Shown: positions 3,400 through 59,854, counted from the stretch's first letter. The stretch is DNA of 64,000 bases from an uncultured Actinomycetota bacterium (GCA_963829525.1 CAWHIJ010000003.1:480001-544000); one strand, 5' to 3'. Numbers and translations: made by a program. The notes: generated by a model not told the origin, from the sequence alone.

Positions 3400-4682
<1,283 letters not shown>

Positions 4683-4686
<4 letters not shown>

Positions 4687-5738
4687 GCAAGCCAACTCTT
4701 GCTGTTGTCGGTGCGACCGGCGCCGTCGGGACGGTCATGCTCGACATCCTCAGTTCCCGCGAGGACGTCTGGGGCGAGATTCGGTTGGTTGCCTCGGCGC
4801 GCTCCGCGGGCAGGGTGTTGCAGGTGCGTGGCGAGGACGTTGTCGTCCGGGCACTCTCAGCCGAGGTCTTCGACGGCGTGGACGTGGCCATGTTCGACGT
4901 CCCCGACGAGGTGTCAGGGGAGTGGGCGCCCATCGCAGCAGCTCGCGGAGCAGTGGCCGTCGACAACTCCGGTGCCTTCCGGATGGACCCAGATGTTCCG
5001 CTAGTGGTACCTGAGGTGAACGCGGCTGCGGCGCTGGTGCGTCCGAAGGGAATCATCAGCAACCCGAACTGCACCACGTTGTCGATGATCGTGGCGATGG
5101 GAGCGCTACACCGCGAGTACGGCCTTGTTGAACTGGTCGTCGCGTCCTACCAGGCGGCGTCCGGCGCTGGTCAGGAAGGTATCGACACCCTTCGTGAGCA
5201 GTACGCCAAGGTTGCTGCCTCACCAGATGCTGGAAATCGGGCAGGCGACCTGCGGGGAATCGTCGGTGGCACCGGACCGTTCCCGGCACCGCTTGCCATG
5301 AACGTCGTCCCGTGGGCCGGCTCGTTGAAGGACGACGGCTGGAGCAGCGAAGAGCTCAAGGTGCGGAACGAGTCGCGCAAGATCCTCGGGATCAAAGACC
5401 TCCGGGTCTCGGCCACCTGCGTGCGTGTGCCGGTCATCACCACGCACTCACTCGCGGTGCATGCGCGCTTTGACCGAGAGGTCGACCAGGTACGGGCGCA
5501 GGACATCTTGCGAGAGGCTGAAGGCGTCGTGCTGCTCGACGACCCGGCAGCCGGCGAGTTTCCGACACCGAATGACGTGGTCGGCACTGACCCGACCTGG
5601 GTCGGGCGTGTCCGGCGATCGATCGACGATCCGCATGCGCTCGATCTCTTCGTCTGCGGCGACAACTTGCGTAAAGGAGCAGCCCTCAACACGGCGCAGA
5701 TCGCCGAGGTCGTGGCGCGCGAGCTCAGCACCCCCTAG
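4683..5738 (+). CDS. asd: Aspartate-semialdehyde dehydrogenase
   Basis: [25 protein letters not shown]; overlaps ask. Confidence 0.98.
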
Positions 5739-5786
5739 AGCTAATCTCGGTCGCGCTCGGCGAGGGACTGCGTCTACGGTGACGCG

Positions 5787-6461
5787 GTGATCGCTGCTCC
5801 CCGCTTGCTCAGCGTGAATCTCGCCGTGGTTCGCGACAACCCTTTCAAAGAGGCGGCCCGAACCGGCATCGACAAGCAGGCGACGGACGGGCCCGTGACA
5901 GTCAGGGCGCCAGGGAGCAAGGCTCATGGCCTTGGCAGTGGGCTCGTCGGTGACTTCATTGGCGACCGTCGTAACCATGGTGGCGACGACCAGGCGGTTT
6001 ACGCATACGCGGTGGAGGATCTGCGGTGGTGGACTGACCAGCTAGGTACGACGCTCGGGGCTGGACAGTTCGGTGAGAACCTCACGACGGAAGCTCTTGC
6101 TGTCAATGACGCTCGCATCGGAGAACGCTGGAGACTGGGCGAGAACGTCGAGCTGCAGGTCTCGGAGCCGCGTATCCCGTGTGGCACGTTTCGCGGATGG
6201 ATGAATCGGCCGGGCTGGCTCAAGACCTTCACCGCCGCCGCTCGGCCCGGTGCCTATCTTCGGGTGTTGACTCCCGGGGTGGTGCAAAGCGGTGACCTGG
6301 TTGAGATCACGCACGTCCCCGCACACGACGTCACGGTGGCTATGGTCTTTCGAGCTCTGACGACTGAGCCGTCCTTGTTGCCAAGAATTCTAGAGTCGCC
6401 GGACCTAGCAGACGAGACGCGTGAGATGGCCGAATCGGGCCGAACCTTCCACCTTGGATGA
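5787..6461 (+). CDS. MOSC domain protein (YiiM-like)
   Basis: TGIDK, HGGDDQAVYAY, FGENLT, EPRIPC and RPGAYLRV motifs. Confidence 0.9.
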   Translation: MIAAPRLLSVNLAVVRDNPFKEAARTGIDKQATDGPVTVRAPGSKAHGLGSGLVGDFIGDRRNHGGDDQAVYAYAVEDLRWWTDQLGTTLGAGQFGENLTTEALAVNDARIGERWRLGENVELQVSEPRIPCGTFRGWMNRPGWLKTFTAAARPGAYLRVLTPGVVQSGDLVEITHVPAHDVTVAMVFRALTTEPSLLPRILESPDLADETREMAESGRTFHLG

Positions 6462-6483
6462 GCTCTGGGTGCACTCGGCCGGA

Positions 6484-6517
6484 TTGAGGGTGGAGCCAGA
6501 TCCGGCCCCACCCTCAT
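6484..6517 (-). terminator. Hairpin just outside the distal att site, probably the original tRNA-Pro terminator
   Basis: GAGGGTGG.GCC...GGC.CCACCCTC inverted repeat between the MOSC stop and the duplicated tRNA 3' end. Confidence 0.6.
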
Positions 6518-6522
6518 CACAC

Positions 6523-6547
6523 GGCGTCGGGGTGGCGGGATTCGAAC
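6523..6547. repeat. Distal att site: 25-bp duplicate of the tRNA-Pro 3' end
   Basis: GGCGTCGGGGTGGCGGGATTCGAAC is identical at 6523-6547 and 18130-18154. Confidence 0.95.
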
Positions 6548-6663
6548 TCCGAAAAGCGTGTTCGGCGGGGGTCGCCAGCGTTCTGGGATATTGCATCGTC
6601 GCAGGTGAGCGACGTGTGGAGTTCGCGCGGCCTCGGAGCGGTTCACCGAAATCCGATGCTCCC

Positions 6664-6684
6664 GTGACCACTTCTGTGACCACT
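6664..6684. promoter_or_regulatory. Putative integrase arm-type sites, left end (GTGACCACT x2, 12-bp period)
   Basis: The same motif and period recur at the other element end (18043-18065). Confidence 0.7.
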
Positions 6685-6791
6685 CGAGGCCGCGAATCTG
6701 CTGGTTGACGTCGGCTGTGAGGCGCCGCCCTGGCTGCCCTGTGGGTCCGGGATTGAGCAAGTCTCAGATCGAAGGCGAGACGCATTACGAG

Positions 6792-7102
6792 GCCGCTGCG
6801 GAGGTTCCACCGAGGTTCATGCTCGGCCGTCGCCGACAGAGGTCAGTGGCATACGGAACAGTCGCGGATTTGCCCGACACGACATCAACTGAGACCACAA
6901 CTGAGACCACGATTTCAAGCGTGGAACTCCATTAGATCTCCAAGCTAACCCACTCGCTTACCTCGCCATACCACCGAGACGTGATGCACCTGATGAACCT
7001 GCTTTCCGACTGCCAACCCGTCGCAGCACAGCTCCTCATGACGCATCTCACGCACGACAATGCGCCTCGGGGGTTGATTGATAAGGCTGTGAAACGTCCG
7101 CG
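6792..7102. repeat. ~310-bp non-coding dispersed repeat, copy 1 (att-arm-like)
   Basis: Aligns by eye end to end with 10911-11219; contains AACTGAGACCAC x2 at 6887-6910. Confidence 0.92.
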
Positions 7103-7465
7103 GTCCTGACGTTCCGTCCGATGTTCGTGGGCGCAAGTCGCCGGGCGCTGAAGGTGACGCGTCCAGATCCCCCATACCGAGACTCGGGATATGGGAGTGT
7201 CCCCGAACCCGGACAGATCTGGGGGGGGAGTATCGACCGAGGGGGGCAGCGCTTGCTACATCTTCGCCGACTGCCTCGCTGCTGCGAATGAGCCGGAGGG
7301 GAGCACGAACCAGCGTTGAGGCTGCCGATTGAAGCGCGGCCCCCCGGGGGGTAATGCGCCGTCCGTCTAAGAGCCCGGCAGTGCAACCGCGGGGCGCCCC
7401 GGCGGCGGTCGGCGCGTGCGTGAGGAGTCGGTTGCCACGCGATATTTCGAGTGGTTCAACGCGGT

Positions 7466-7732
7466 CTACGACTGGGAGAGCGCGGGCCCGATGACGGTCA
7501 TGATCTCGCGATCGTATGTAGTGCTGAGGGCTACGTAACCTACACCCTCTACGGAGACGGTCATCCCCTTGTGCGCGGAGGTCACGCCGTCCACCCACGC
7601 GCGTTGTGCCTCGGGCGAGGAAAAGGTCCGCAGCATGACTGGCGCGCTGTGTTCCGGGGTGCCAAAGTCGGTGACGTTGTCTACAAACCAGACCGAAGCC
7701 CAGTGTTCGGAGTACGCGTCAAGCACTGCCAT
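7466..7732 (-). CDS. Hypothetical protein, 88 aa (element cargo, possibly a fragment)
   Basis: Most protein-like ORF in this interval; no recognisable motif. Confidence 0.4.
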   Translation of the reverse strand: MAVLDAYSEHWASVWFVDNVTDFGTPEHSAPVMLRTFSSPEAQRAWVDGVTSAHKGMTVSVEGVGYVALSTTYDREIMTVIGPALSQS

Positions 7733-8019
7733 TAGGCCTCGACCTGCGGGCCCTGCCAGAGAGCAGGGAGTCTTTCATGGCTCTGCGAGGCGATCCACCA
7801 GGACGGACCGATGGCCCACTGCGACCACGATCTACCGCTGTCCGAAGGCTGCATCTCCTGCCAGATAGCGGGGGAACCGGTCATTGACGACAACTAGCCA
7901 TCGAGAACAGCCTTGTGCACTGTCTGAGTACGGCTCTTGTCGACACCACCCATATCCTTGACAGCGGCTTCACCCACTGATTTAGTGGCCTGCCCGTTTT
8001 GATCCGAGACTGGGGTTCC

Positions 8020-9324
8020 GTGAAACTGAGCCAAAAACTGGCGATGCCATGCCTGGCGGTGGGAGCAGTCGCCGCAGTTGCCGTATTCGGAACGACCGCA
8101 CCCGCGGCGGTGGCCGATGATTCCTCCACGCAAGCGGTCGACGCCGGTTCCGTCGAGGTCATCGAACCTGACCCAGTTGACCTTGTTCCTGAGGACCTGG
8201 CGGGGACCGCCGGGCACGCGGCCTGGCTTGTTGAGACGTACCCGCAAGACTTCGGTGGCAGTTGGTATGACGAGGCAAGGGGTTTGGTGGTCGTTCAGGT
8301 GGTTTCGTCCCAGGGACGTGAAATAGCCACGGAAATGCTTCCCATGGGTTCGATTGATATTACGGAAGTGCAGTTCTCGGCGAAGGACCTTGAAGACCAG
8401 ATCCAAGCGATTGCGACAGACCCAAACCTTGCGCCGATCGTCAACGTCGCGAGTGCCGACTACGAAAACAACAGCGTCCGCGTGGACATGGAATCTATGT
8501 CTGCGTCAAGCGCAGAAGACCTTGATGCAAGCGGGGACATCGACATCGAAGTCGACATCACTGATGCACTGAACGTTGTTAAGACCGACACTCGCGATGA
8601 CGATTCCGGCCCCGGCCATGCTGGTGGCATGCGCTATTACGCGCGAAAGCCCGACACGCAGGATTGGGGAAGCTGCACCGCGGGCTGGAGCTGGCAATGG
8701 GCGGGCGGCGATTACATGTTGACCGCTGGACACTGCTTTCCGCAGCACACTGATCGGACCCAGGCATGGACGAAACTGGGAGGCGATTGGGACGAGCGTT
8801 TTGGCGGCTGGCCCGGATACACGTCGGTCAATGACAGTGGGTATGACTCGATCAAGTTCTCAGACGACGAGTACCACGGTGACGTGAGCCTCATCAGTAT
8901 GACGGGCAGCAACAACGCCAACGCCAATATGTGGACCGGAGGTGTGGCCTCATCGGACAAACTTGACGTTACCCAATGGAGTGCGCCATTCGTGGGGCAG
9001 GGCCTGTGCGTATCTGGCGCGTATACGGGCAAGACATGTGGTTTTGTGGTGTCGCGGACCAACACACACATTCACCTCGACGCGGCGCCGTCAAGATGGG
9101 ATTCGTGGGAGTCGGTTGACGTCGCACTTCACGGCAACGATTGCCTCGCGCATGGTGACTCGGGTGGATCGGTCTATGACCCGATCGCTGGGACCAACAA
9201 TGTTCGTGCCGTGGGAGTGGTTAACTCGGCGACGACTAGTGGCTCCTGCGGCGATGCCGCCCTAGTCTTCACAGGTACAGAGGAGGCCGGACAGGCCTTT
9301 GGGGGTGCGGTGAAAACCCAATGA
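8020..9324 (+). CDS. Secreted S1 (alpha-lytic/streptogrisin-like) serine protease with pro-region
   Basis: Signal peptide, acidic pro-domain and catalytic motifs LTAGHC, DVSLI, GDSGGS. Confidence 0.88.
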   Translation: MKLSQKLAMPCLAVGAVAAVAVFGTTAPAAVADDSSTQAVDAGSVEVIEPDPVDLVPEDLAGTAGHAAWLVETYPQDFGGSWYDEARGLVVVQVVSSQGREIATEMLPMGSIDITEVQFSAKDLEDQIQAIATDPNLAPIVNVASADYENNSVRVDMESMSASSAEDLDASGDIDIEVDITDALNVVKTDTRDDDSGPGHAGGMRYYARKPDTQDWGSCTAGWSWQWAGGDYMLTAGHCFPQHTDRTQAWTKLGGDWDERFGGWPGYTSVNDSGYDSIKFSDDEYHGDVSLISMTGSNNANANMWTGGVASSDKLDVTQWSAPFVGQGLCVSGAYTGKTCGFVVSRTNTHIHLDAAPSRWDSWESVDVALHGNDCLAHGDSGGSVYDPIAGTNNVRAVGVVNSATTSGSCGDAALVFTGTEEAGQAFGGAVKTQ

Positions 9325-9677
9325 CGCCGACGGAGTGGCAGACCAGCGAGGCACGTCGATCCGAAGGGGATCGGGTTACACGCCTTCATCTCGTTGGCCT
9401 GCTCATCCTTGTCGTCGGGTTAGGTCTGGCATGGTGGAAGTTCGATTCGCCGTCGTGCACTCACGGGGTCACCCTTGCGCGACTGGCCGCGGGAGCGCTC
9501 ATAGTGGTCGCCATCGCGGGACTCGGTTTCGTCTTGGCGGGAGCGCGAAGGCTTGAGTCGGGCAGAGTATGGATCGTGCTTGCAGGCGTGCTGCTAGCGG
9601 CACCGACGTTGTTTGTCGGCTTGTATGACCTACGGGAAGCATTCCGGTTGGCCGCGTGTATGACCCAACTTCTGTGA
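9321..9677 (+). CDS. Small membrane protein (~3 TM), translationally coupled to the protease
   Basis: ATGA overlap with the protease stop; three hydrophobic stretches. Confidence 0.6.
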   Translation: MTPTEWQTSEARRSEGDRVTRLHLVGLLILVVGLGLAWWKFDSPSCTHGVTLARLAAGALIVVAIAGLGFVLAGARRLESGRVWIVLAGVLLAAPTLFVGLYDLREAFRLAACMTQLL

Positions 9678-9841
9678 ACGTGCTCGGCGCTTCGCGTCCG
9701 AGCGGCCGCTTTGGCCAAGTATGTGCTTCAGAGGAGTCGGCTGGCGCGCTGTCGTCCGATCGCCGTGCGGTTTCATGCGGCGAGCCGTGAGGTCGGCTAG
9801 TCCGCGCACGTGACGCGCGCGTTGGTTGGCGCATCGTTCCG

Positions 9842-11008
9842 GCACGCGGCTATTGCGCTATGCACTACACACGATGGCGTCTTCACGGTGATCCCCTAGT
9901 CGTACTTAGGGCCAACAAGCAACCGGACGGTGCGGTGTGCCAAGTCGATAGTTGCGACCGGCCTGCGCAATCGCGCGGTTACTGCGGCATGCACTACGCA
10001 AGATGGCGCAAACATGGCGACCCCCTGCTCGGTGGAAGAGCTAGGCGATCAGATGCCACGGCTTGTTACGTAGAGGGCTGCAACCGGCCACAGAAGAGCC
10101 AGGGCTACTCCGGCATGCACTACAAGCGATGGCTAAAGCACGGCGACCCGCTCGTGGAGAGGACTCGCTACATCGCAGCCTCCGTGTGCAGTGTCAATGG
10201 CTGCGACAGACTCCCAAAGTCGCGCGGCTACTGCGACAAGCACTATCGGCGGTGGCTTAAGTATGGAGATCCGCTGGACGGCAAGTCTTCGCATCGCACC
10301 TACACCAAGGATGCGGTATGCAGCGTCGATGGTTGCGACGCGTCCCCGAGCTCACTGGGCTTCTGCCGTCTGCACTACGAACGGTTCCGCAAGCACGGCG
10401 ATCCACTGGTCGTACTTAGCGGCGGACGGCGCCACAAACCTGGCGAAACTTGTGAAATCGAGGACTGCGACAAGCCCATCAGAAGTCGGGGCTACTGCCT
10501 CATGCACTACACCCGGTGGCGCCAACATGGTGACCCACTGGTGGTTCTCAAGGTGGCGAAGCGACCTGAAGGGTCCGTGTGTGCCGTCGAAGGATGTGCT
10601 GACGCTGTGGCCGCCGGAGACTTCTGCAATCGGCACTACTTGCGTTGGAGGAAGCACGGTGACCCTTTGGGCGGCAAACCTGGTCCGAGCGTTCTAAGGG
10701 CCTTGGATCACGAGGACGGGACCCGAACGTGCAGCGTCTGCGAGGAACGGAAGCCCCTGGATGCGTTCCCGAAGGACAGGGCCGGCTCGCGGAGTCGAAG
10801 GGCGTACTGCAAGGCTTGTCACGTCAAGAAGATGACGGTTCGGTACAACGAAGATCCCGAACGGTTTCGCGCCGCCGCGCAGAAGCGGCTAGAAGTCAAT
10901 GGCGAGGAACGCCGCTGCGGAGGTTCCACCGAGGTTCGTGCTCGACGGTTTGCGCAGGTCAATCGCATACGGGACAGTCGCGGAACTGCCCGACACGACA
11001 TGAACTGA
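9842..11008 (+). pseudogene. Tandem Cys3His zinc-finger-repeat protein (HNH/EndoVII-associated type), truncated at both ends
   Basis: Seven C-x4-C-x9-C-x2-HY-x-RW-x2-HGDPL units (the first partial, beginning in frame upstream of ATG 9860). A CxxC..CxxC finger follows; the ORF then runs into repeat copy 2 at 10911. Confidence 0.75.
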
Positions 11009-11219
11009 GACCACAACTGAGACCACGATCTGATCCGTCGAACTCGATTGGACCCTCCAAGCTAACCCACTCGCTTACCTCGCCACACCAGCGAGACGTG
11101 ATGCACCTGATGAACCCGCTTTCCGACTGCCAATCCGTCGCTGCACAGCTCCTCTTGACGCATCTCACGTGCAACGATGCGCGCCAGGGGTTAGTTGATA
11201 GTGCGAAGAAACGTCCGCG
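10911..11219. repeat. ~310-bp non-coding dispersed repeat, copy 2 (att-arm-like)
   Basis: Diverged direct copy of 6792-7102; GCAGGTCA at 10954 and AACTGAGACCAC x2 at 11003-11026. Confidence 0.92.
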
Positions 11220-11254
11220 ATGCCCGAGTGGCCGTCAGGCACAGCAGGGGGCGT

Positions 11255-11770
11255 TCAGCCCCCATCGTCAGTCCACAATGTCGCCTGGTTGGCGGCAGCG
11301 ATGGCCTCGGTCAGATCCAAGGCGCAACTGTAGACGTGGTCCAAGTCTTCTCCTTCAACCGTAGCGAGGGCTGTGCCCGCTGGTGGAAGCGGCTGAAGCC
11401 ACAACTGCCACCGGATTCCGTCGGGACCTCCGTCCGATGCGAAGCAGCCCAGTGTGTAGTCGCTACTGCCGTCACGGATGGGTGAACCGTGGCTTGTACC
11501 CCACTTCGCGCTGGATCCGTCCGGCCAACTGAGCGATAGAGACAACCAATCAGGGTGGCTTGGTTCGAACCGAAGGTCCCATTCATGGCTGGGCGACCGC
11601 GCGGCCACAAGCAGGGTGAGATCCAGACGTAATCCGTCCGGGTATGCCGCTGGGCACGTGAGGGTCACAACAGCATTGTTGGCATGGGCAATTACTGCGC
11701 CGAATCCGGGGAAGCCGGGAATCCAGCCTCGGAAATCCGGCGGCCAGCCTTGCTGTTGCCCCTCGGCCAA
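11255..11770 (-). CDS. Hypothetical protein (actinobacterial AYPDG...WLQPLPP..LW type)
   Basis: GGAGG RBS before TTG 11770; globular composition. Confidence 0.65.
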   Translation of the reverse strand: MAEGQQQGWPPDFRGWIPGFPGFGAVIAHANNAVVTLTCPAAYPDGLRLDLTLLVAARSPSHEWDLRFEPSHPDWLSLSLSWPDGSSAKWGTSHGSPIRDGSSDYTLGCFASDGGPDGIRWQLWLQPLPPAGTALATVEGEDLDHVYSCALDLTEAIAAANQATLWTDDGG

Positions 11771-11813
11771 TTTTGACCTCCGTGACCCATTCCAATGAAC
11801 CGGGACAAGCAAC

Positions 11814-11993
11814 CTATGGTTGCGTATTGGGGCAAGCCCAGCCACCGTTGCGCTCACTCGGCGGCAGCTGGCACTGGTTGCTAGGCATAGCGGGTTCGTG
11901 CGCCGTGGCGGCGCGACTAGAGGCAAGACCAACGGTCAGAACTACGAAGGTCATGGCGATGAGCGCCTGGCTACGCCGGGATCTCAGGGTCAT
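11814..11993 (-). CDS. 59-aa secreted peptide or stub paralogous to the N-terminus of the upstream secreted protein
   Basis: GGGAG RBS, signal peptide and QCQLPPSERNGGWACP, matching QCSVPVDSRTGAWTCP of 12059-12871. Confidence 0.65.
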   Translation of the reverse strand: MTLRSRRSQALIAMTFVVLTVGLASSRAATAHEPAMPSNQCQLPPSERNGGWACPNTQP

Positions 11994-12058
11994 CTTCACA
12001 TACTCCCGACTCGTCACTAGCGCGACTCCCTTGGTCCCAGGCGCTTCCGTGCACTGCG

Positions 12059-12871
12059 TCACTTCCAACCGCTCCCCGCGGGGTCTTGCGGCACGCATGA
12101 ATCGCACTGCGAGTTGTACGCCCCACTCGACTGCCTTGCCAGTTTGATCGACTTCGCCCACATGTACCAAGTTCCAGGGTACTGGGATGAGTAGTCTTGC
12201 CACTGCGCCTCGTTAGCCACTGTGACGTAGGCAACCCCGTTGGTCCATGACTTACCGGGCGATGGCCATTGAGTCGACACTCCGCCTGCTGCTGATCCCC
12301 AGGACTTCTGGGCATACAAGATCGGGTCTTGGTGATTCCCTTCGGGACGAGCGGAAGACACATAGAGGTCTTCGGTGCTAATGATGATGTTGGTCGTTCC
12401 TCTGCTTGCCGAGAACCACAGCGGATAGGCCTTGATGTTGCTCCCCTTTGCCACGATCTTGAAGTGAAGCCGTCCAGTTCCAAGCATTGTGCCGCCGTAC
12501 CCGTACGTCACACTGCCGTCAAAGGTGTTGGTGGCGCTGTCAATCTTGGTCCAGCAACCATCGATCGTGCACCACCCGGTGCCAGCCGCAGCCACGTCAG
12601 CTGCCGATACCAGCTTCTTGCCGAGCGCTGCCCGCGCTGCCCGCGCAGCCCGCGCAGCCGACGTCGGTGTTGTATCTGGACACGTCCACGCCCCTGTGCG
12701 GGAATCGACCGGGACGGAACACTGGTCCGTCGAGGGATCGCTCGTTGTTGTGGCTGTGTACCCGACGGCGATCGTGGTCCGTGAGCTTGAGACTGCGCCG
12801 GACGCGGCCTGAGGCGCTATCGCCAGCATCAGGAGCACTGCACCGAGGAACGACCAGACTCTGATTGTCAT
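12059..12871 (-). CDS. Secreted hypothetical protein (Trp/Cys/Gly-rich)
   Basis: Sec-type signal peptide, paired cysteines, beta-rich mature part. Confidence 0.75.
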   Translation of the reverse strand: MTIRVWSFLGAVLLMLAIAPQAASGAVSSSRTTIAVGYTATTTSDPSTDQCSVPVDSRTGAWTCPDTTPTSAARAARAARAALGKKLVSAADVAAAGTGWCTIDGCWTKIDSATNTFDGSVTYGYGGTMLGTGRLHFKIVAKGSNIKAYPLWFSASRGTTNIIISTEDLYVSSARPEGNHQDPILYAQKSWGSAAGGVSTQWPSPGKSWTNGVAYVTVANEAQWQDYSSQYPGTWYMWAKSIKLARQSSGAYNSQCDSCVPQDPAGSGWK

Positions 12872-12952
12872 GAGCAACGCCCCGATCGTCTCTGCAACTG
12901 CACGCCCTGTATACAGGTCTCGTATCCCGCGCACAAGAGGTCACGTTGACTC

Positions 12953-13185
12953 TGACGGGTCCCCGTGAACTGATCCACGGTGTGTGAGAGTCATTCATTG
13001 GTGGGTGCAGAGGCCGCGTAGTGGGCTGGTGTTCGCTAGCCCAACGATGAGTGCCTGCGGTGGTGGTTGTATTCGTCCTTGCAGTCGCCGATCACGACCC
13101 TGGCGTGTGCCAGGGACCAGAACAGGTTGATGTTCAGGCATTCGTCGCGCAGTCGTCCGTTGAACGATTCGATGTAGCCGAAGCG
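12953..13185 (-). pseudogene. IS3-family transposase 3' remnant with probable terminal IR
   Basis: GYIESFNGRLRDECLN...EYNHHRRHSSLG, then a premature TAG before RTPAHYAA. A TG-starting end sequence lies at 12953; the 5' part is missing. Confidence 0.85.
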
Positions 13186-13552
13186 GCTACGTTCACGTCC
13201 CTTCGAGCGGTGTAACTGGGGCGCTGAACCTGGTCGGCTTTGCGGTGATGCTGGTTGGACTGTCGCCCGTCGAGGGACGAGGGCGTGATCGCCCACGGCT
13301 CTCACCCGTGAACTTCGACAAGCAGACCGCTGCACTCGTCTTGCACCGTGCCTGTGACCGTTGGCCCGGCTGGCGGTAAGTGTTGCTGGAACCGTTGGCA
13401 ACTTGGATTCCGTGTTCGCGTCGGGTCGCAGTGGTGCATCCGGATCTTGTTCGCGCCGGGACTTCGTCTTGGGGGTCGTTCTGCACACCTGTTGTTGTGA
13501 GGTCGGCGCGATGTGCGTCGGCCCGTGACGGGTCAGGGCGGTGGGCGCGGTG

Positions 13553-16510
13553 ATGTCGATGCACCGCCTGTCGGCCGGGAACGGCTTCCGGTATCTGCTG
13601 AACACCACCGCCACGTCTGACGTGGAACGTACGCCCGGGCTTCCGTTGGTGGAGTACTACGCGGAATCGGGGAACCCACATGGACGCTGGGTCGGCGGCG
13701 GACTATCCGGTCTAGGTGAGGGTCAGGGCATCCCGGTCGGCACTGAGGTGTCCGAGGCAGCGATGACCGCAGTGTTCGGCCACGCGGCCGACCCGGTGAC
13801 GGGGTCCGCACTTGGTCGGCCGTTTCCCACGCGGACCGGGGTCGACGGCGTAGCCCGCCCGTCCGGTGTGGCGGGCTATGACCTGACGTTCACGGTCGTG
13901 AAGTCGGTCAGTGTGTTGTGGGCTCTGGGGGACGAAAACACACGCACTGTGGTGACGGCCGCACACCACGCGGCGGTCACCCAGACCCTGGCAGCGTTGG
14001 AGGACCGGGTGGCCGCGACCCGGGTTGGACATGGCGGCGCAAGCCGCGTGGCAACCCGCGGAGTCATCGCGGCGGCTTTCGACCATCCCGACACCAGGCA
14101 CGGTGACCCAAACCTGCACACCCACGTGGTGGTCGCCAACCGCGTCCAGGCCGCCGACGGTCAATGGCGGACTCTGGACGGCCGAGTCATGTTTGCGGCT
14201 GCGGTGGCGTTATCGGAGACCTACGACGGCCTCCTCGCCGACGAGCTCGCTCGAAGGCTTGAGGTTGGTTTCGGGTCGCGCGACCGCGGTCCCAGGCGGT
14301 CCGCGGCGTTCGAGGTCGACGGCATCGACGAGGAGCTCCTCGCGCTGTTCTCCACCCGTGCCCGAGACATCGACGGCCACTTCCAAGACCTGCTGGTCGA
14401 CTTCCATGTCGACCACGGGAGGGGGCCGTCGCGGGTCGAGGCGATCCGCCTACGGCAGACCGCGACCTTGGCTACTCGTCCCATCAAACGCGCCCGCGCC
14501 TGGGCCGACCTGCTGACCGAGTGGGGCCAACGCGCACGCCTGTTCACCGGGCGCGCCCCGAAAGATCTGCTCGCGGAAGCCCTAAATGGCACCTACGCCC
14601 GGTCGCTGCGGGCGCGCGACATCGGCCCGGGCTCCCGCCAAGACCTCGCCGGATTGGCGGTCGTGGGGGTGCAAGCCAGGAGATCAACGTGGAACGGGTG
14701 GAACCTCGAAGCCGAGGTTGCGCGTCTCACCAAGCCCCTACGATTCGCGACGCCGCGCGATCGTTTGGAGGTTCACGCCAGCCTCGTCGCAACCGCCCAA
14801 GACACCTGTGTCGCCCTTCACGACGCCGACAGCGTAGTTGACCGGTGGACCGCGATGGCGCGGCGCTGGACATCGCCGGCGATCCTGGACGCCGAGTCCC
14901 GCCTGTTGAACGCCGCGACCACCGGGGTCGGGCCAGCCGTCGATGAACGGCTCGCGTCGCGGGTGGCGGCCGCGACGACCTCAGCCCAGGACCTGCCCAG
15001 GTCGCTATCTGATCGCGGTATCGGGCGACTCTCACCCGATCAGGCCGCAGCGCTCGTGGCGGTGTGCACGTCCGGGCACGGAGTGCAGGTCCTCGTCGGC
15101 CCCGCCGGATCGGGGAAGACCACCACCCTGAAAGCCATCAAGGGCCTGTGGTCGATGGACCGTCGCAACACCGCCGGGGTCATCGGGCTGGCGCCGTCCG
15201 CGGCGGCCGCCCAAGAACTCAGCACGGCCCTGGGGGTGCGGTGTGAGACCACCGCGAAGTGGCTGCACGAGACCATCGGCCCTGGCGGGCAACAACGCGC
15301 CGCGACCCTCACCGCCTTGACTGACGGCTCTCAGCCCCGAACGACATCAGGTAGTCGGGCCGATGCCCGAGGTCAGGTCGCCTGGCGGCTACGCGGCGAG
15401 CAGGCCCGGTGGCGGCTCAAGGCCGGGCAGCTGCTCATCGTCGATGAGGCCACCCTCGCCGGCACCCTGGACCTGGACCACCTCTTGAGCCAAGCCCAAG
15501 CCGCCGGCGCCGGGGTGCTGCTGGTCGGCGACCACCATCAGCTCAGCGCTGTCCAGGCAGGCGGCGCCTTCGGGCTCCTCGCCCGCCGGACCTCCCCCGC
15601 AGAGCTGACTGGGCTGTGGAGATTCGCCGACCGTTGGGAGGCCCGAGCCACCCGCCTACTGCGCCACGGACACCCCGACGCGCTGGACGCCTACGACACC
15701 CACGGCAGGCTCCACGCCGGCACCCGTCAGCAGATGATCGAAGACGCTTACCAAAGCTGGCGAGTAGACCATGACGCCGGGCGCGAGTCGCTGCTCATCG
15801 CCGCGGACAACGCCACCGTCCTGGAACTGAACACCCGGGTTCGAACCGACAACATCACCGCGGGTCGGGCCAGCGCAGCAGGGGTCGATCTCGTCGACGG
15901 AAACACCGCCGGGGTCGGCGACCGGGTCATCACCCGAGATAACAACCGCGCCCTGCCCGATGGCAAAGGCGGGCACATCCACAACGGCGACACTTGGACG
16001 ATCACCGCCCTCGGCGACGACGGCTCAGTCACCGTCACCCCCGCCCAGTCGGTCTCGGGTCAGCCGTGCCGTCCGGTGCGACTCCCCGGTGGATACGTGG
16101 CCGAGCACGTCGACCTCGGCTATGCGATCACCACTCAACGCGTCCAGTCCAGAACCGTCGACACCACCCACGTCATCGCCACGCGCGGCATGAGTCGCGA
16201 ACACCTTTACGTCGCCCTCACCCGGGGACGAGCCGACAACCACGCCTACACCCCTCTCGATACAGGCTCCGGAGTTGACATCGAAGAGCCGCACCTGCGA
16301 GCCGACGGCGCCAGCTTGAACGAAACAGGTTGCGATGTCCTCAAGCAGATCCTCGCCACCAGCAGCGCCGAACCCTCCGCCACCGAATCGCTCGAGTCCG
16401 GGCGCTATCCACAAACCGCTCCCCGGCCCAGGCTCCGTCCACAGAATCAGCCGAACACCTTGCCGCTACCCACCTCCCCGGGTCCAGATGGACCCGGGCT
16501 CACCCGCTAA
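13553..16510 (+). CDS. mobF: MobF/TrwC-family relaxase with SF1 helicase domain
   Basis: MSMHRLSAGNGFRYL, EYY, YDLTF..KSVS and the HUH motif HPDTRHGDPNLHTH. Helicase motifs GPAGSGKTT, LIVDEA, LVGDHHQL, LYVALTRGR. Confidence 0.93.
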   Translation: MSMHRLSAGNGFRYLLNTTATSDVERTPGLPLVEYYAESGNPHGRWVGGGLSGLGEGQGIPVGTEVSEAAMTAVFGHAADPVTGSALGRPFPTRTGVDGVARPSGVAGYDLTFTVVKSVSVLWALGDENTRTVVTAAHHAAVTQTLAALEDRVAATRVGHGGASRVATRGVIAAAFDHPDTRHGDPNLHTHVVVANRVQAADGQWRTLDGRVMFAAAVALSETYDGLLADELARRLEVGFGSRDRGPRRSAAFEVDGIDEELLALFSTRARDIDGHFQDLLVDFHVDHGRGPSRVEAIRLRQTATLATRPIKRARAWADLLTEWGQRARLFTGRAPKDLLAEALNGTYARSLRARDIGPGSRQDLAGLAVVGVQARRSTWNGWNLEAEVARLTKPLRFATPRDRLEVHASLVATAQDTCVALHDADSVVDRWTAMARRWTSPAILDAESRLLNAATTGVGPAVDERLASRVAAATTSAQDLPRSLSDRGIGRLSPDQAAALVAVCTSGHGVQVLVGPAGSGKTTTLKAIKGLWSMDRRNTAGVIGLAPSAAAAQELSTALGVRCETTAKWLHETIGPGGQQRAATLTALTDGSQPRTTSGSRADARGQVAWRLRGEQARWRLKAGQLLIVDEATLAGTLDLDHLLSQAQAAGAGVLLVGDHHQLSAVQAGGAFGLLARRTSPAELTGLWRFADRWEARATRLLRHGHPDALDAYDTHGRLHAGTRQQMIEDAYQSWRVDHDAGRESLLIAADNATVLELNTRVRTDNITAGRASAAGVDLVDGNTAGVGDRVITRDNNRALPDGKGGHIHNGDTWTITALGDDGSVTVTPAQSVSGQPCRPVRLPGGYVAEHVDLGYAITTQRVQSRTVDTTHVIATRGMSREHLYVALTRGRADNHAYTPLDTGSGVDIEEPHLRADGASLNETGCDVLKQILATSSAEPSATESLESGRYPQTAPRPRLRPQNQPNTLPLPTSPGPDGPGLTR

Positions 16511-16535
16511 CCAACGCAACGAGAAGAGAGCCGAC

Positions 16536-16754
16536 ATGCCACGGTCCGCCGCCACCGCTGACAGCACCTGCGTCCTGCTCACCGTCGAGCAGGCCGCCCA
16601 CCGCCTCGGGATCGGACGCACCATGGCGTTCGCGCTGATCGCACAAGGGCGGCTGACGACCGTCCGGATCGGCCGCCTGCGCCGCATCCCCGTCGAGGCC
16701 CTTCCGGAGTTCGTGGAATCACTGAGTCATGGTGAGCCGTGCGACCCTAAGTGA
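16536..16754 (+). CDS. xis: Excisionase / HTH_17 DNA-binding protein
   Basis: LLTVEQAAHRLGIGRT...IGRLRRIP; purine-rich RBS; directly upstream of the integrase. Confidence 0.88.
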   Translation: MPRSAATADSTCVLLTVEQAAHRLGIGRTMAFALIAQGRLTTVRIGRLRRIPVEALPEFVESLSHGEPCDPK

Positions 16755-16781
16755 CGTACGGCCGTTCAGAATGGATTGCAG

Positions 16782-17987
16782 ATGAGCCCTCCCGAATCAC
16801 AGCAACAGGGCGCGACGGGTCGCCGTGGAAGCGTGAAACAGAGCGCGAACGGCACGTGGTTCTTCGTGGTCGATACCACGCCCGAGGGCGCGCCGACTCG
16901 AGAGCAGACTCGCCGACGCGGCTTCGCAACGAGACGGGCTGCTCAAGCTGCCTTGACCAAAACCCTTCGAGACTTGAGCGACCAAACCTACGTCCTGCCC
17001 CTGAGGCAAACCTTCGGTGAATACCTGACCGCAACCTGGCTCCCGGCGATTCGCTCCACCGTTCGTCCCAGCACGTACGACAGCTACGCGCGCAACATTC
17101 GCATCCACGTGACGCCGAAGAGTCTCGCGACTGTTTCCGTGCAGCAGGTGCAGGCTCCCATGCTCAACGCCTTGTACGCAGATCTGCTCGAAGGCCAGCA
17201 CCGACGGCCGCTGTCGCCACGATCAGTGTCGTACGTGCACACGATCCTGCACCGAGCCCTGCGCGACGCCGTCCGATGGAATCTGTTGGCACGAAACCCC
17301 AGCGACTTCGCCGACCCTCCCCGGGCTCGGCCATCGGAGCAGGTCCGCGAACGAACCTGGACCAGCATCGAGGTCGCGCGATTCCTCAAGGCCACGTCCG
17401 CCAGCCGGCACTCCACACTCTGGCGCTTGTACGCCACCACCGGGTTGCGGCGCGGGGAAGCACTCGGGCTGCGATGGGACGACATCGATCTCAGCGGCGG
17501 ACGGCTGTCGGTCAACCGAACGCTCGTTCAGAGCCACGACTACGCCCGCGGGGACACCGGTCTGAACTGGGGTACACCCAAGACAGCCCGCGGCCGACGG
17601 ACGGTCGCACTAGATCCCGACACCGTCTCCGCACTGCGAGCGCACCGCGCTCGCCAGCTCGAGGAACGACTGCGGGCGGGCTCCGGCTACGACGACCAGG
17701 GCTTGGTGTTTTGCAGCCGCGCAGGGGAACCGCTCCACCCGAAAGTGATCTCCAACTTGTTCCGCAAAGCCGTGCAACGCCACGACATGCCTTACCTCTC
17801 GGTGCACGGCCTACGGCACACGTGGGCGACTCTCGCGCTTCAGGCAGGCGTGCACCCGAAGATCGTCCAGGAGCGACTCGGCCACTCGACGATCTCGATC
17901 ACCCTCGACATCTACAGCCATGTGAACCCGGCGATGGACGCCGAAGCCGCCAACACCGTCGCGGCACTCATCCGTCGCGATTCATGA
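16782..17987 (+). CDS. int: Tyrosine integrase
   Basis: TGLRRGE (R), TPKT (K), HGLRH, RLGHS, DIYSH (Y); N-terminal arm-binding-like region; converges on the tRNA 3' end. Confidence 0.96.
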   Translation: MSPPESQQQGATGRRGSVKQSANGTWFFVVDTTPEGAPTREQTRRRGFATRRAAQAALTKTLRDLSDQTYVLPLRQTFGEYLTATWLPAIRSTVRPSTYDSYARNIRIHVTPKSLATVSVQQVQAPMLNALYADLLEGQHRRPLSPRSVSYVHTILHRALRDAVRWNLLARNPSDFADPPRARPSEQVRERTWTSIEVARFLKATSASRHSTLWRLYATTGLRRGEALGLRWDDIDLSGGRLSVNRTLVQSHDYARGDTGLNWGTPKTARGRRTVALDPDTVSALRAHRARQLEERLRAGSGYDDQGLVFCSRAGEPLHPKVISNLFRKAVQRHDMPYLSVHGLRHTWATLALQAGVHPKIVQERLGHSTISITLDIYSHVNPAMDAEAANTVAALIRRDS

Positions 17988-18042
17988 CACGTCCCGCACA
18001 GAGCGGGCGCGGTCACGGTCGTTTTCGGAGGGTCGCTCAGTT

Positions 18043-18065
18043 CCTGTGACCAATCCTGTGACCAA
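18043..18065. promoter_or_regulatory. Putative integrase arm-type sites, right end (CCTGTGACCAA x2, 12-bp period)
   Basis: Matches the motif at 6664-6684. Confidence 0.7.
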
Positions 18066-18086
18066 AGGGCCGATTTCGGCCCTAAA

Positions 18087-18131
18087 CCAGTCAGCCGGTG
18101 CCTCTGACCTGCGGAGACACCGGCTGACTGG
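18087..18131 (-). terminator. Element-borne hairpin directly downstream of tRNA-Pro
   Basis: 14-bp perfect stem CCAGTCAGCCGGTG/CACCGGCTGACTGG; second hairpin at 18066-18083. Confidence 0.7.
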
Positions 18132-18133
18132 CG

Positions 18134-18207
<74 letters not shown>

Positions 18208-18256
18208 CCAAAGCCTGGTCAGCCTACCGAACCGTGGGCAACCGCCCGAAATCGCC

Positions 18257-19141
18257 TCAATCGGCTGGCACGAGGGTGAGCAGTGTTGCCTCAGGTGGGC
18301 AGGCGAACCGGATCGGTGCTGTCGGTGATGTGCCGAGACCGGCTGAGACGTGTAGCCAGGCGTCACCTCGCACGTGCAGCCCACTGGCTTGAGAAGTCGG
18401 CAGGTCGCAGTTGGTGACGAGCGCCCCGAAGCCAGGGAGGCGAAGTTGGCCACCGTGGGTGTGACCGGCAAAGATCAAGTCGAAGCCGTCGCCAGCCATG
18501 GAGTCTACGACGCGCAAATAGGGCGCGTGGGTGACGCCAATGCGCAGGACGCCATGCTCGGGTGCGCGGTAGGTGACATCCGCGTAGCGGTCCAGGCCAA
18601 GGTGAGGATCGTCGGTACCCGCGGCAGCGATCCTCTGTTGCCGCACCTTGAGGTCGGCATCGTGGTTGTTGAGATCAATCCATCCTCGCGAAACAAACCC
18701 ATCGCGAAGGGCCTTCCACGGCAACGGCTCTCCGAGGATCCGGCCGCCCGAATCTGGCAATAGGTATCGCGCGGGGTTCTTCCACACCGGCCCGTAGTAG
18801 TCGTTCGACCCCATGACGAAGACACCGGGGATGTCGAGCAGGGGATCAAGGGTCTTGAGCACAACCGGGACGGCGTCAGGATGTGCCAGGTTGTCACCCG
18901 TGTTGACGATGAGGTCGGGCTCGAGAGCCGCAAGTTGACGCACCCACGCCGCCTTTCCCTTCTGACGAGGGATCAGGTGCAGATCGGACAGGTGCAGAAT
19001 CCGTAGTGGTTCGGCTCCTTCGTCCAGCGTCGGAACTGTGATTCGGCGCAGACGGTATTGGTGGGCCTCCCACGCGGCATAGGCGATGCCGGCCGTCTGG
19101 GCTGCGACAGCGGCTGCGAGAAGTCTTCGGCCTCGGGACAC
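18257..19141 (-). CDS. Metallophosphoesterase (YkuE-like)
   Basis: DLH, TGDN, GSND, GHTHGGQ and GLGTS motifs. Confidence 0.92.
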
Positions 19142-34741: not shown

Positions 34742-34796
34742 GTCACCGACGACTTTCCCCAGGCCACACATGGCCAAACACGGCCGTCAACCAGAT

Positions 34797-34909
34797 GTGC
34801 ACTCGCCGAGCCTGAGCGTCAACGGAGTGCGCACTCGCCGAGCCTGAGCGTCAACGGAGTGCGCACTCGCCGAGCCTGAGCGTCAACGGAGTGTGCACTC
34901 GCCGAGCCT
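34797..34909. repeat. 32-bp tandem repeat, ~3.5 copies
   Basis: GCACTCGCCGAGCCTGAGCGTCAACGGAGTGC starts at 34799, 34831 and 34863, with a partial copy at 34895; no spacers. Confidence 0.95.
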
Positions 34910-59777: not shown

Positions 59778-59854
59778 GCCGCCTTAGCTCAGTCGGCTAG
59801 AGCGACGCACTCGTAATGCGTAGGTCATCGGTTCGACTCCGATAGGCGGCTCCA
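59778..59854 (+). tRNA. tRNA-Thr (anticodon CGT) with encoded CCA
   Basis: GCCGCCTTAGCTCAGTCGGCTAGAGCGACGCACTCGTAATGCGTAGGTCATCGGTTCGACTCCGATAGGCGGCTCCA folds as a cloverleaf. Confidence 0.97.

Follow-up and report, generated by a model that had tools for sequence, protein, structure and literature searches.

We analysed an 11.6-kb genomic island at 6524-18157 of a 64,000-nt stretch of DNA (the window) from an uncultured Actinomycetota bacterium (GCA_963829525.1 CAWHIJ010000003.1:480001-544000). The island, which its gene content marks as an integrative mobilizable element (IME), contains two repeats of ~310 bp, modules A and B, each followed by a block of cargo genes (blocks 1 and 2; Table 1). 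We propose that these repeats are probably scars: the integrase module of the island would have been replaced, a sister element would then have been added by site-specific accretion, and the duplicate backbone would have been lost. An earlier note on this DNA had interpreted the repeats as attachment (att) arm-like modules of an integron-like cassette system. No such system was found, the integrases appearing to be ordinary tyrosine integrases of the arm-binding type and attC-like ends being absent.

The anatomy of the island, the homologies of its parts and its breakpoints can be read off directly. As the earlier note had described, modules A and B are diverged direct repeats with sharp edges and unrelated flanks, and no target-site duplication accompanies them. 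Their mean column identity in a MAFFT alignment is 86% (88% when only substitutions are counted, over 266 columns). A repeat search returned segments of 165 nt at 88% and 97 nt at 87%, and BLAST against the own genome gave 86% identity over positions 1-311, with only two full copies in 2.96 Mb. The order of motifs given in the note was likewise found. GAGGTTC occurs twice, at 6801 and 6812 (11-bp period), followed by an AGGTCA box at 6838-6845 and by a doublet of AACTGAGACCAC with a 12-bp period, which is present in both modules. The true left end of the island has the same order, with a tRNA-derived core, the box GCAGGTGA and a doublet of GTGACCAC. The arm-type motif of the island's own integrase (Int1) differs by one base from that of the modules (TGTGACCAC vs TGAGACCAC), and the 12-bp spacing is common to both. 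The island has, as claimed, three stacked left ends, one true and two internal. Doublets of at least 9 nt with a 12-bp period occur at only four positions in 6000-18400 (6664, 6886, 11003 and 18042), and TGWGACCAC was found 6 times in the window compared to 1.6 expected, a count reached in 1 of 100 shuffles.

Lambda-type attP sites consist of a core flanked by arm-type sites, to which the N-terminal domain of the integrase binds. To place the modules, we used a comparison set of 20 genomes of the family (19 besides the window genome). Matches were obtained in 4 of the 19 other genomes, all of the same genus, and it was separate pieces of the module that matched. Module positions 1-120 matched the loci G011:C196, G008:C18, G012:C206 and G008:C85. 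In the first three, the arm directly follows a displaced tRNA-Thr(CGT) 3' half ending in ACGCATTACGAG, and the left edge of the module corresponds to the transition into element DNA in these genuine attL sites. G011:C196 is a complete 7.6-kb element, comprising the tRNA half, an arm with AACTGAGACCA x2, a gene for an extracytoplasmic function (ECF)-type sigma factor, TrwC (63% identical to the window TrwC), Xis, a second integrase (Int2, 33% identical to Int1), the doublet again and the intact tRNA gene. The Int2 lineage targets tRNA-Thr(CGT), with the crossover in the anticodon loop, and occurs intact in three genomes of the genus. Because the aligned sequence directly follows the tRNA-Thr half in genuine attL sites, we assign the first ~120 nt of the module to the integrase-distal (P') arm of an Int2-type att site; on the alignment with three such sites, the claim that the modules are att-arm sequence holds. 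Note that in two relatives, G008:C85 (L017 10055-11592) and G011:C196 (L020 679-2009), the cargo next to the P' arm opens with a gene for an ECF-type sigma factor and continues with an unknown gene.

For Int1, Int2 and Int3 (the integrase of G008:C85) alike, a target-shared core is flanked on either side by repeated arm-type sites. Judged by these motifs, the att sites of all three resemble lambda-type attP in combining a core, a box and a doublet of 9-12 nt at 12-bp spacing in both arms. A GCAGGTCA box was present in 7 of 7 aligned P' arms and also occurs near the tRNA 3' ends of other att sites. The box GCAGGT(C/G)A was observed in the window at 6601-6608, 6838-6845, 10952-10959 and 18106-18115, in L017 at 9527-9540 and in L010 at about 128-140; it lies between core and arm doublet and beside tRNA 3' ends, in att sites of the Int1, Int2 and Int3 lineages as well as of distant Actinomycetota, and may be bound by a host or accessory protein.

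A scan across Actinomycetota, with one genome per species, returned the exact Int2 doublet in at least 119 stretches. Streptomyces, Kitasatospora, Micromonospora, Kribbella and many metagenome-assembled genomes (MAGs) are represented among the matches listed. Most stretches have the doublet less than 400 nt from a tRNA gene (tRNA-Ser in 78 and tRNA-Phe in 4, among the matches listed). The att grammar of core, GCAGGTCA box and 12-bp-spaced doublet is easily searchable, and the Int2 doublet, which marks more than 100 elements across the phylum, could aid the mapping of island ends in Actinomycetota. Two loci with several arms were observed. L087, an 8-kb stretch of a MAG contig, has stacked P' arms in the same orientation (doublets at 2181-2203 and 6611-6633), the outer beside a tRNA-Thr half and the inner of tRNA-Ser type with a degenerate core; the two arms precede different cargo (YbjQ-domain genes and a beta-helix protein; an IS3-type transposase). 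L095 (reverse strand 4183-5849) reads P arm, tRNA-Ser half, P' arm, ~1.2 kb, P arm and tRNA-Ser(CGA); it is a tandem junction with a ~1.4-kb mini-element without an integrase gene, and its arm copies vary at one position. In the window genome there is no Int2 homologue and no other TGAGACCA doublet. Its own tRNA-Thr(CGT) gene (59778-59854) carries the same 12-nt anticodon-loop stretch as the Int2-type cores, and the site is free.

The last ~190 nt of the module are older debris, making the module a mosaic of old junctions and not one functional unit. Its middle ~120 nt are common only to the sister island (described below). In module A, the following 38 nt share 71% identity (manual count) with a tadA stretch of G009:C427, and a 30-nt unit, GGGGTTGATTGATAAGGCNGNGAAACGTCC, comes next, the outer edge of which is the right edge of the module. 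At up to 3 mismatches this unit occurs at 9 places in 5 of the 20 genomes, compared to 0 for the reversed control: window 7070-7099 and 11187-11216, C3:1019458 of the own genome (L153), and L146, L148, L149, L151, L152 and L154. Two of these places are inverted pairs of ~73 nt. In G009:C427 the unit abuts a tadA gene (CpaF-type ATPase) that is cut just before the Walker B region, with tadB- and tadC-like genes following; comparison with the intact tadA of the genome identifies the unit as foreign to this gene. The unit may be the end of a mobile element or a hairpin unit resembling repetitive extragenic palindromes (REP-like).

A right end that belongs to a unit recurrent in the genus, and module ends that match at 11 of 13 positions in inverted orientation, are features of a non-autonomous transposon (miniature inverted-repeat transposable element) with 13-bp terminal inverted repeats. 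However, just two copies exist in 2.96 Mb, both in the island and without target duplication; the left end occurs in P' arms without the right end, and the right unit occurs without the left end. This explanation is largely refuted already and is exceedingly improbable. The earlier note had described the module ends as imperfect inverted repeats; the 11/13 match does exist, but we judge it coincidental, its halves occurring separately elsewhere. The modules also contain two invariant runs besides the doublet, of 20 and 14 nt, as might be expected of a structured non-coding RNA or a small gene. The first of these, AACCCACTCGCTTACCTCGC at 6947-6966 and 11064-11083, is invariant in the three Int1-type modules. 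Against such a function, the fold z-scores of the modules are 0.09 and -0.19, the covariation term is unfavourable (+2.46), Rfam gave 0 matches at E<=1 in 6300-11600, the A/B substitutions show no codon periodicity, and the modules contain no promoter- or terminator-like sites. An RNA or small gene is accordingly hardly credible to us. Inverted repeats of at least 9 nt were not found in the modules either, and comparison of the module with plasmid and phage records revealed no similarity.

We next consider the sequence to the left of module A. It is a decayed tRNA-Thr-like half of ~60 nt, the pseudo-core, whose 12-nt end is the anticodon-loop end of the own tRNA-Thr and of three true attL2 cores. 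The rest has a loose likeness to a tRNA-Thr half and cannot encode one. Pseudo-core and arm are found just inside the left end of the island in the window and in G011:C133, both with Int1, and in G008:C85 with Int3 (~80% identity). The G011:C133 island occupies the same MOSC/tRNA-Pro site; its Int is 97% and its TrwC 90% identical, and it carries one module in the same place together with other cargo of 8.8 kb. Int3 shares 46% identity with Int2 and 34% with Int1. Its island is equipped with a tRNA-Lys core repeat of its own (45 nt, 95.6%) and with an arm doublet of its own, CTGGCAGCCAC x2, found at either end. Overall, Int1, Int2 and Int3 are 33-46% identical, compared to 63-90% for the TrwC proteins of their elements. 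The same Thr-type scar is found inside islands of different integrases (we count three integrase-attP modules). The simplest account of this shared scar is replacement of the integrase-attP module in descendants of an ancestor with a Thr-type site. Passages of PMC3218068 report that actinobacterial integrating elements exchange modules.

Between the window genome (G000) and G011, identity is 92% left of 6791 but only 65% in the module, a drop that we first read as proof of recombination at the crossover. This interpretation was withdrawn because the substitution-only identity of the module (76.5-80%) approaches that of backbone third codon positions (82-86%). Neutral decay of the scar beside a constrained att arm explains the drop.

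The left joint of module B provides the evidence for accretion. Homology between A and B begins at the crossover point, and the left edge of copy B lies at most ~4 nt from the crossover as set by the three true attL sites. The joint cuts an HNH-endonuclease-like gene, whose 3' part forms the left flank of B and which encodes seven tandem 43-aa zinc-ribbon-like repeats (C..C...GYC..HY.RW.KHGDP type). The sole homologue retrieved (1 of 97 candidates) aligns to residue 337 and then extends for ~160 aa more with HNH domains; this missing part was not found nearby. No decayed pseudo-core was detectable left of copy B by local alignment (p=0.14), and no right-end (P-arm) partner sites or further cores were found inside the island. 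Because the gene is cut so close to the expected Int2-type exchange point, the B joint suggests the footprint of a site-specific event, made by an integrase rather than by random deletion. A and B differ from each other by 12% and each from the G011 module by 20-24%, with backbone third codon positions 14-18% different. The 12% divergence thus argues against a fresh duplication and for an origin of B in an already diverged sister element.

Alternatively, the internal joints could have formed without any integrase, by simple internal duplication or by random deletion as the island decayed. This would agree with the fact that A and B are each other's closest relatives and with the presence of an insertion sequence (IS) fragment and other debris in the island. 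However, a random break would be unlikely to fall within ~4 nt of an independently defined crossover. Moreover, 12% is too high for a recent in-place duplication, and identical 310-bp repeats would be expected to recombine away. We consider plain decay very unlikely.

The order of events, the integrase responsible for the joints and any present-day activity are reconstructed from these breakpoints as follows. An ancestor of the TrwC-Xis-Int family would have used a Thr-type att site. Its integrase-attP module would have been replaced, here by Int1/tRNA-Pro and in G008 by Int3/tRNA-Lys, with the old core and P' arm left behind as module A. A sister element with the same scar (module B, block 2 and backbone) would then have joined site-specifically at the old crossover, breaking the HNH-like gene at the end of block 1. 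Finally, one of the two ~4.6-kb TrwC-Xis-Int backbones would have been lost by homologous recombination. In the resulting island, the true left end would precede two left ends that are scars, and each of these scars would head its own cargo block. Integration followed by backbone loss is the shortest path, and it would leave no right-arm relic, consistent with none having been found.

Several points weigh against this scheme. Neither a tandem intermediate nor a second backbone was seen, and replacement, accretion and backbone loss are all reconstructions. Just two Int1-type islands occur among the 20 family genomes. The B joint requires integrase activity at the old Thr-type crossover, yet the own genome is without Int2, and with the true tRNA-Thr site free, an event at a secondary site is not expected. 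The explanation of the sharp right edges rests on the guess that the 30-nt unit is a break-prone repeat. A metagenome scan with the 20-nt block returned 1 stretch, a chance match in a low-GC protease gene, with the other module parts unmatched. Lastly, the doublet is intact in the three Int1-type modules and one arm copy is decayed in the Int3 island, which hints at a present function.

Such a function could be accommodated if the modules were accretion scars whose TGAGACCAC doublets now serve as extra Int1 arm sites, or as a sink, tuning excision and integration of the whole island. The doublet is the best-kept part of the three Int1-type modules, lying in an invariant run of 24 columns (column-shuffle p=0.025 without gap columns), and it is one base away from the arm site of Int1 itself; the Int3 island, where one copy is decayed, has an unrelated arm site. 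On the other hand, the three conserved copies are not independent, and Int1 and Int2 have diverged in their N-terminal domains. Moreover, the distance between the tRNA-Pro core and the doublets (about 340 nt and 4.5 kb) far exceeds what is usual in lambda-type arm geometry. Recruitment of the doublets as extra arm sites is, on balance, unlikely. Int1 may cross-recognise the doublet, which would give it some present role.

A different role for the same sites would be live capture of cargo. Here, the joint of pseudo-core and P' arm would be an active attI-like site, at which an Int2-type integrase acting in trans, or Int1, inserts circles bearing a P' arm, so that the newest block would adjoin the pseudo-core. 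The present order is the expected product of recombination between a circle (module A, block 1, cut HNH end) and a pseudo-core/module B joint. No substitution occurs in the doublets of three modules that share 76-88% identity elsewhere, the Int1 and Int2 arm sites are one base apart at equal 12-bp spacing, one att region of L095 mixes TGCGACCA, TGTGACCA and TGAGACCA arm copies, and an Int1 island and an Int2 element co-occur in G011. In contrast, there is a single such joint, and B, without a left core half, could not be re-excised by the same route. Right-end sites were not found in the island, and it is to the right of the module, and not at the crossover, that the G000 and G011 islands diverge in cargo. 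Further arrays were not found among the matches listed, with 1 of the 119 doublet stretches (L087) having two stacked P' arms, of different types, and the own genome is without Int2. Live capture is for these reasons improbable. We similarly doubt that the decayed tRNA-Thr-like core is a working docking site for P'-arm-headed cargo, whether served by an Int2-type integrase from a co-resident element or through cross-recognition by Int1. If capture did occur, a mobilizable island would be collecting cargo via a second att system nested in its own; the locus would represent a new gene-capture system only if the internal joint proves active.

Excision of cassettes one at a time, as envisaged in the earlier note, is also unlikely. 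Left of copy B no core half is recognisable, so that an A x B exchange would be without a common overlap, and mobilisation of single blocks in cis is doubtful.

Table 1. Coordinates of the island features within the window.
Feature	Position	Strand	Details
attL core, displaced copy of tRNA-Pro 3' end	6524..6549		25/27 match to 18131-18157; present in the orthologous G011 island
GCAGGTGA box of Int1 left arm	6601..6608	+	read from sequence
Int1 P' arm-type doublet, GTGACCAC x2	6664..6683	+	12-bp period; copies at 6664 and 6676
Pseudo-core, decayed tRNA-Thr-like half	6735..6791	+	ends in ACGCATTACGAG (6780-6791), putative old Int2-type crossover point
Module A	6792..7102	+	Int2-type P' arm ~6792-6911 (doublet 6886-6910), ~120 nt middle, tadA-like ~7032-7069, 30-nt unit 7070-7099
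Cargo block 1	7103..10910		3.8 kb; S1-type protease-like, membrane protein, truncated HNH-like gene
Secreted S1-type protease-like gene	7999-9324		block 1; signal peptide
Membrane protein gene	9321-9677		block 1
HNH-endonuclease-like gene, 3'-truncated	9860-11008		7 zinc-ribbon-like repeats; reads on into module B
Module B	10911..11219	+	make-up as A; doublet 11003-11026, 30-nt unit 11187-11216; no pseudo-core on left
Cargo block 2	11220..13332		2.1 kb; open reading frames 11255-11932 and 12059-12934 (signal peptide), both -; IS (rve) fragment ~12953-13215
CACTCGTCTTGCACCG, candidate oriT/nic element	13333..13348	+	first base of conserved backbone; G011-island homology resumes exactly here
TrwC (MOBF) relaxase-helicase	13541..16510	+	Pfam TrwC 1.9e-79, AAA_30 4.1e-55
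Xis-like HTH_17 protein	16401..16754	+	Pfam 7.8e-9; 83% identical in G011
Int1 tyrosine integrase	16776..17987	+	putative N-terminal arm-binding-type domain; Pfam Phage_integrase 6.8e-26
Int1 P arm-type doublet, TGTGACCAA x2	18042..18066	+	partner of 6664-6683 doublet
tRNA-Pro(CGG), target gene and attR	18133..18207	-	ARAGORN

The host genome of the window has a size of 2.96 Mb in 3 contigs with ~65% GC. Core genes (recR, a DUF5063 gene, ask, asd and a MOSC-domain gene) reach to 6461, and the island beyond them is bordered by a 25/27 direct repeat of the tRNA-Pro(CGG) 3' end. The backbone, in the right third of the island, consists of TrwC, the Xis-like gene and Int1. The Arm-DNA-bind_4 score of Int1 is 21.5, just below the Pfam cut-off of 22.3. 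Other than TrwC, Pfam identified no transfer genes among the open reading frames (ORFs) of the island, and no mating-pore or coupling gene. We class the island as an IME because it combines its own integrase Int1, an HTH_17 Xis, flanking repeats of the target tRNA-Pro 3' end and a relaxase, without mating-pore or coupling genes; its origin of transfer (oriT) is a candidate only. This candidate is a 16-nt block, CACTCGTCTTGCACCG, which is invariant ~190 nt upstream of TrwC in 3 elements whose TrwC proteins are 63-90% identical. Its role as oriT is putative, and its first base, 13333, is the right limit of the variable cargo region. Note that a 20-nt block of the modules, CACTCGCTTACCTCGC, is loosely like the candidate oriT block; gaps are needed and no significance is assigned. 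The whole 11.6 kb probably still excises via Int1, Xis and the tRNA-Pro repeats and would be mobilised by TrwC. The backbone (6526-6791, 13333-17933) is ~91% identical between G000 and G011, compared to only 76% for the host MOSC gene (6213-6461). Thus, transfer of the island between the species postdates their divergence.

The locus resembles integrons only in general layout, with a single integrase, a docking point and blocks in order. The integron-integrase model TIGR02249 (NCBIfam) scored 48.8 against a cut-off of 265, and PRK15417 scored 33.5 against 435, with XerC/XerD-type models scoring higher. Integron cassettes are mostly promoterless single genes in one orientation behind the promoter Pc. 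In contrast, there is here no IntI signature, no attC hairpin and no common promoter or orientation; the blocks are of kilobase size (3.8 and 2.1 kb) and multi-gene, with block 2 on the minus strand.

The statement in the earlier note that no equivalent is described was wrong. Tandem accretion with cis-mobilizable elements (CIMEs) in integrative and conjugative elements and IMEs, such as the ICESt1-type elements of Streptococcus thermophilus, is described in parts of PMC5704250, and actinobacterial elements with a second attL are described in parts of PMC3218068. As in the CIME case, to judge from those parts, cargo without integrase or mobilisation genes is arranged in direct order with an att-type site heading each block, and an element integrates beside or into a decayed relative. 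Blocks 1 and 2 contain no such genes, and complete relatives exist in G011:C196 and G011:C133. The difference is that the internal arms here are of another integrase lineage, with a core that is foreign and decayed (A) or absent (B); the tRNA-Pro core occurs at the two ends only, and the internal sites are of Int2 type.

The closest parallels in the same phylum are composites of actinomycete integrative and conjugative elements (AICEs). According to passages of PMC3218068, Frankia Fean6303 has attL, attL2 and attR and excises from attL or attL2, and the tandem Streptomyces elements Sav3708/Sav3728 use integrases of two sub-families. Shared with these composites, as those passages present them, are the phylum, tRNA targets, tyrosine integrases, stacked left ends and mixed integrases at one locus. 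In contrast, their sites are copies of the same tRNA end, with alternative excision shown by PCR, whereas our internal repeats are not tRNA-Pro copies; furthermore, the AICE backbone described there is of FtsK/Rep type, compared to a mobilizable element with TrwC only. In Dehalococcoides, tandem islands at ssrA form arrays of cargo blocks between direct att repeats, many without an integration module, as described in sections of PMC3146451. The system there differs in using a serine integrase, every block being bounded by the same 20-bp target repeat (PMC3146451).

The locus is a well-resolved example of a known process and not a new system. It differs from the described cases in that its internal sites come from another integrase lineage and are incomplete. 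As a base-resolved example, it illustrates how small mobilizable islands may be built from modules: the integrase-attP module would be swappable, with the old att scar left behind, and a sister element could be added at that scar.

Block 1 is unique among the 20 family genomes except for one 45-nt match. No integrase or mobilisation genes were found in blocks 1 and 2, and no defence-system families in the cargo. The earlier note had described the cargo as dominated by secreted-protein genes, which is correct only in part: signal peptides are present, as judged by eye, in 2 of ~6 cargo ORFs (7999-9324 and 12059-12934), and one ORF encodes a membrane protein. Elsewhere in the window, at 34753-34909, a 32-nt unit of CGTCAACGGAGTGCGCACTCGCCGAGCCTGAG type is present in 4 tandem copies.

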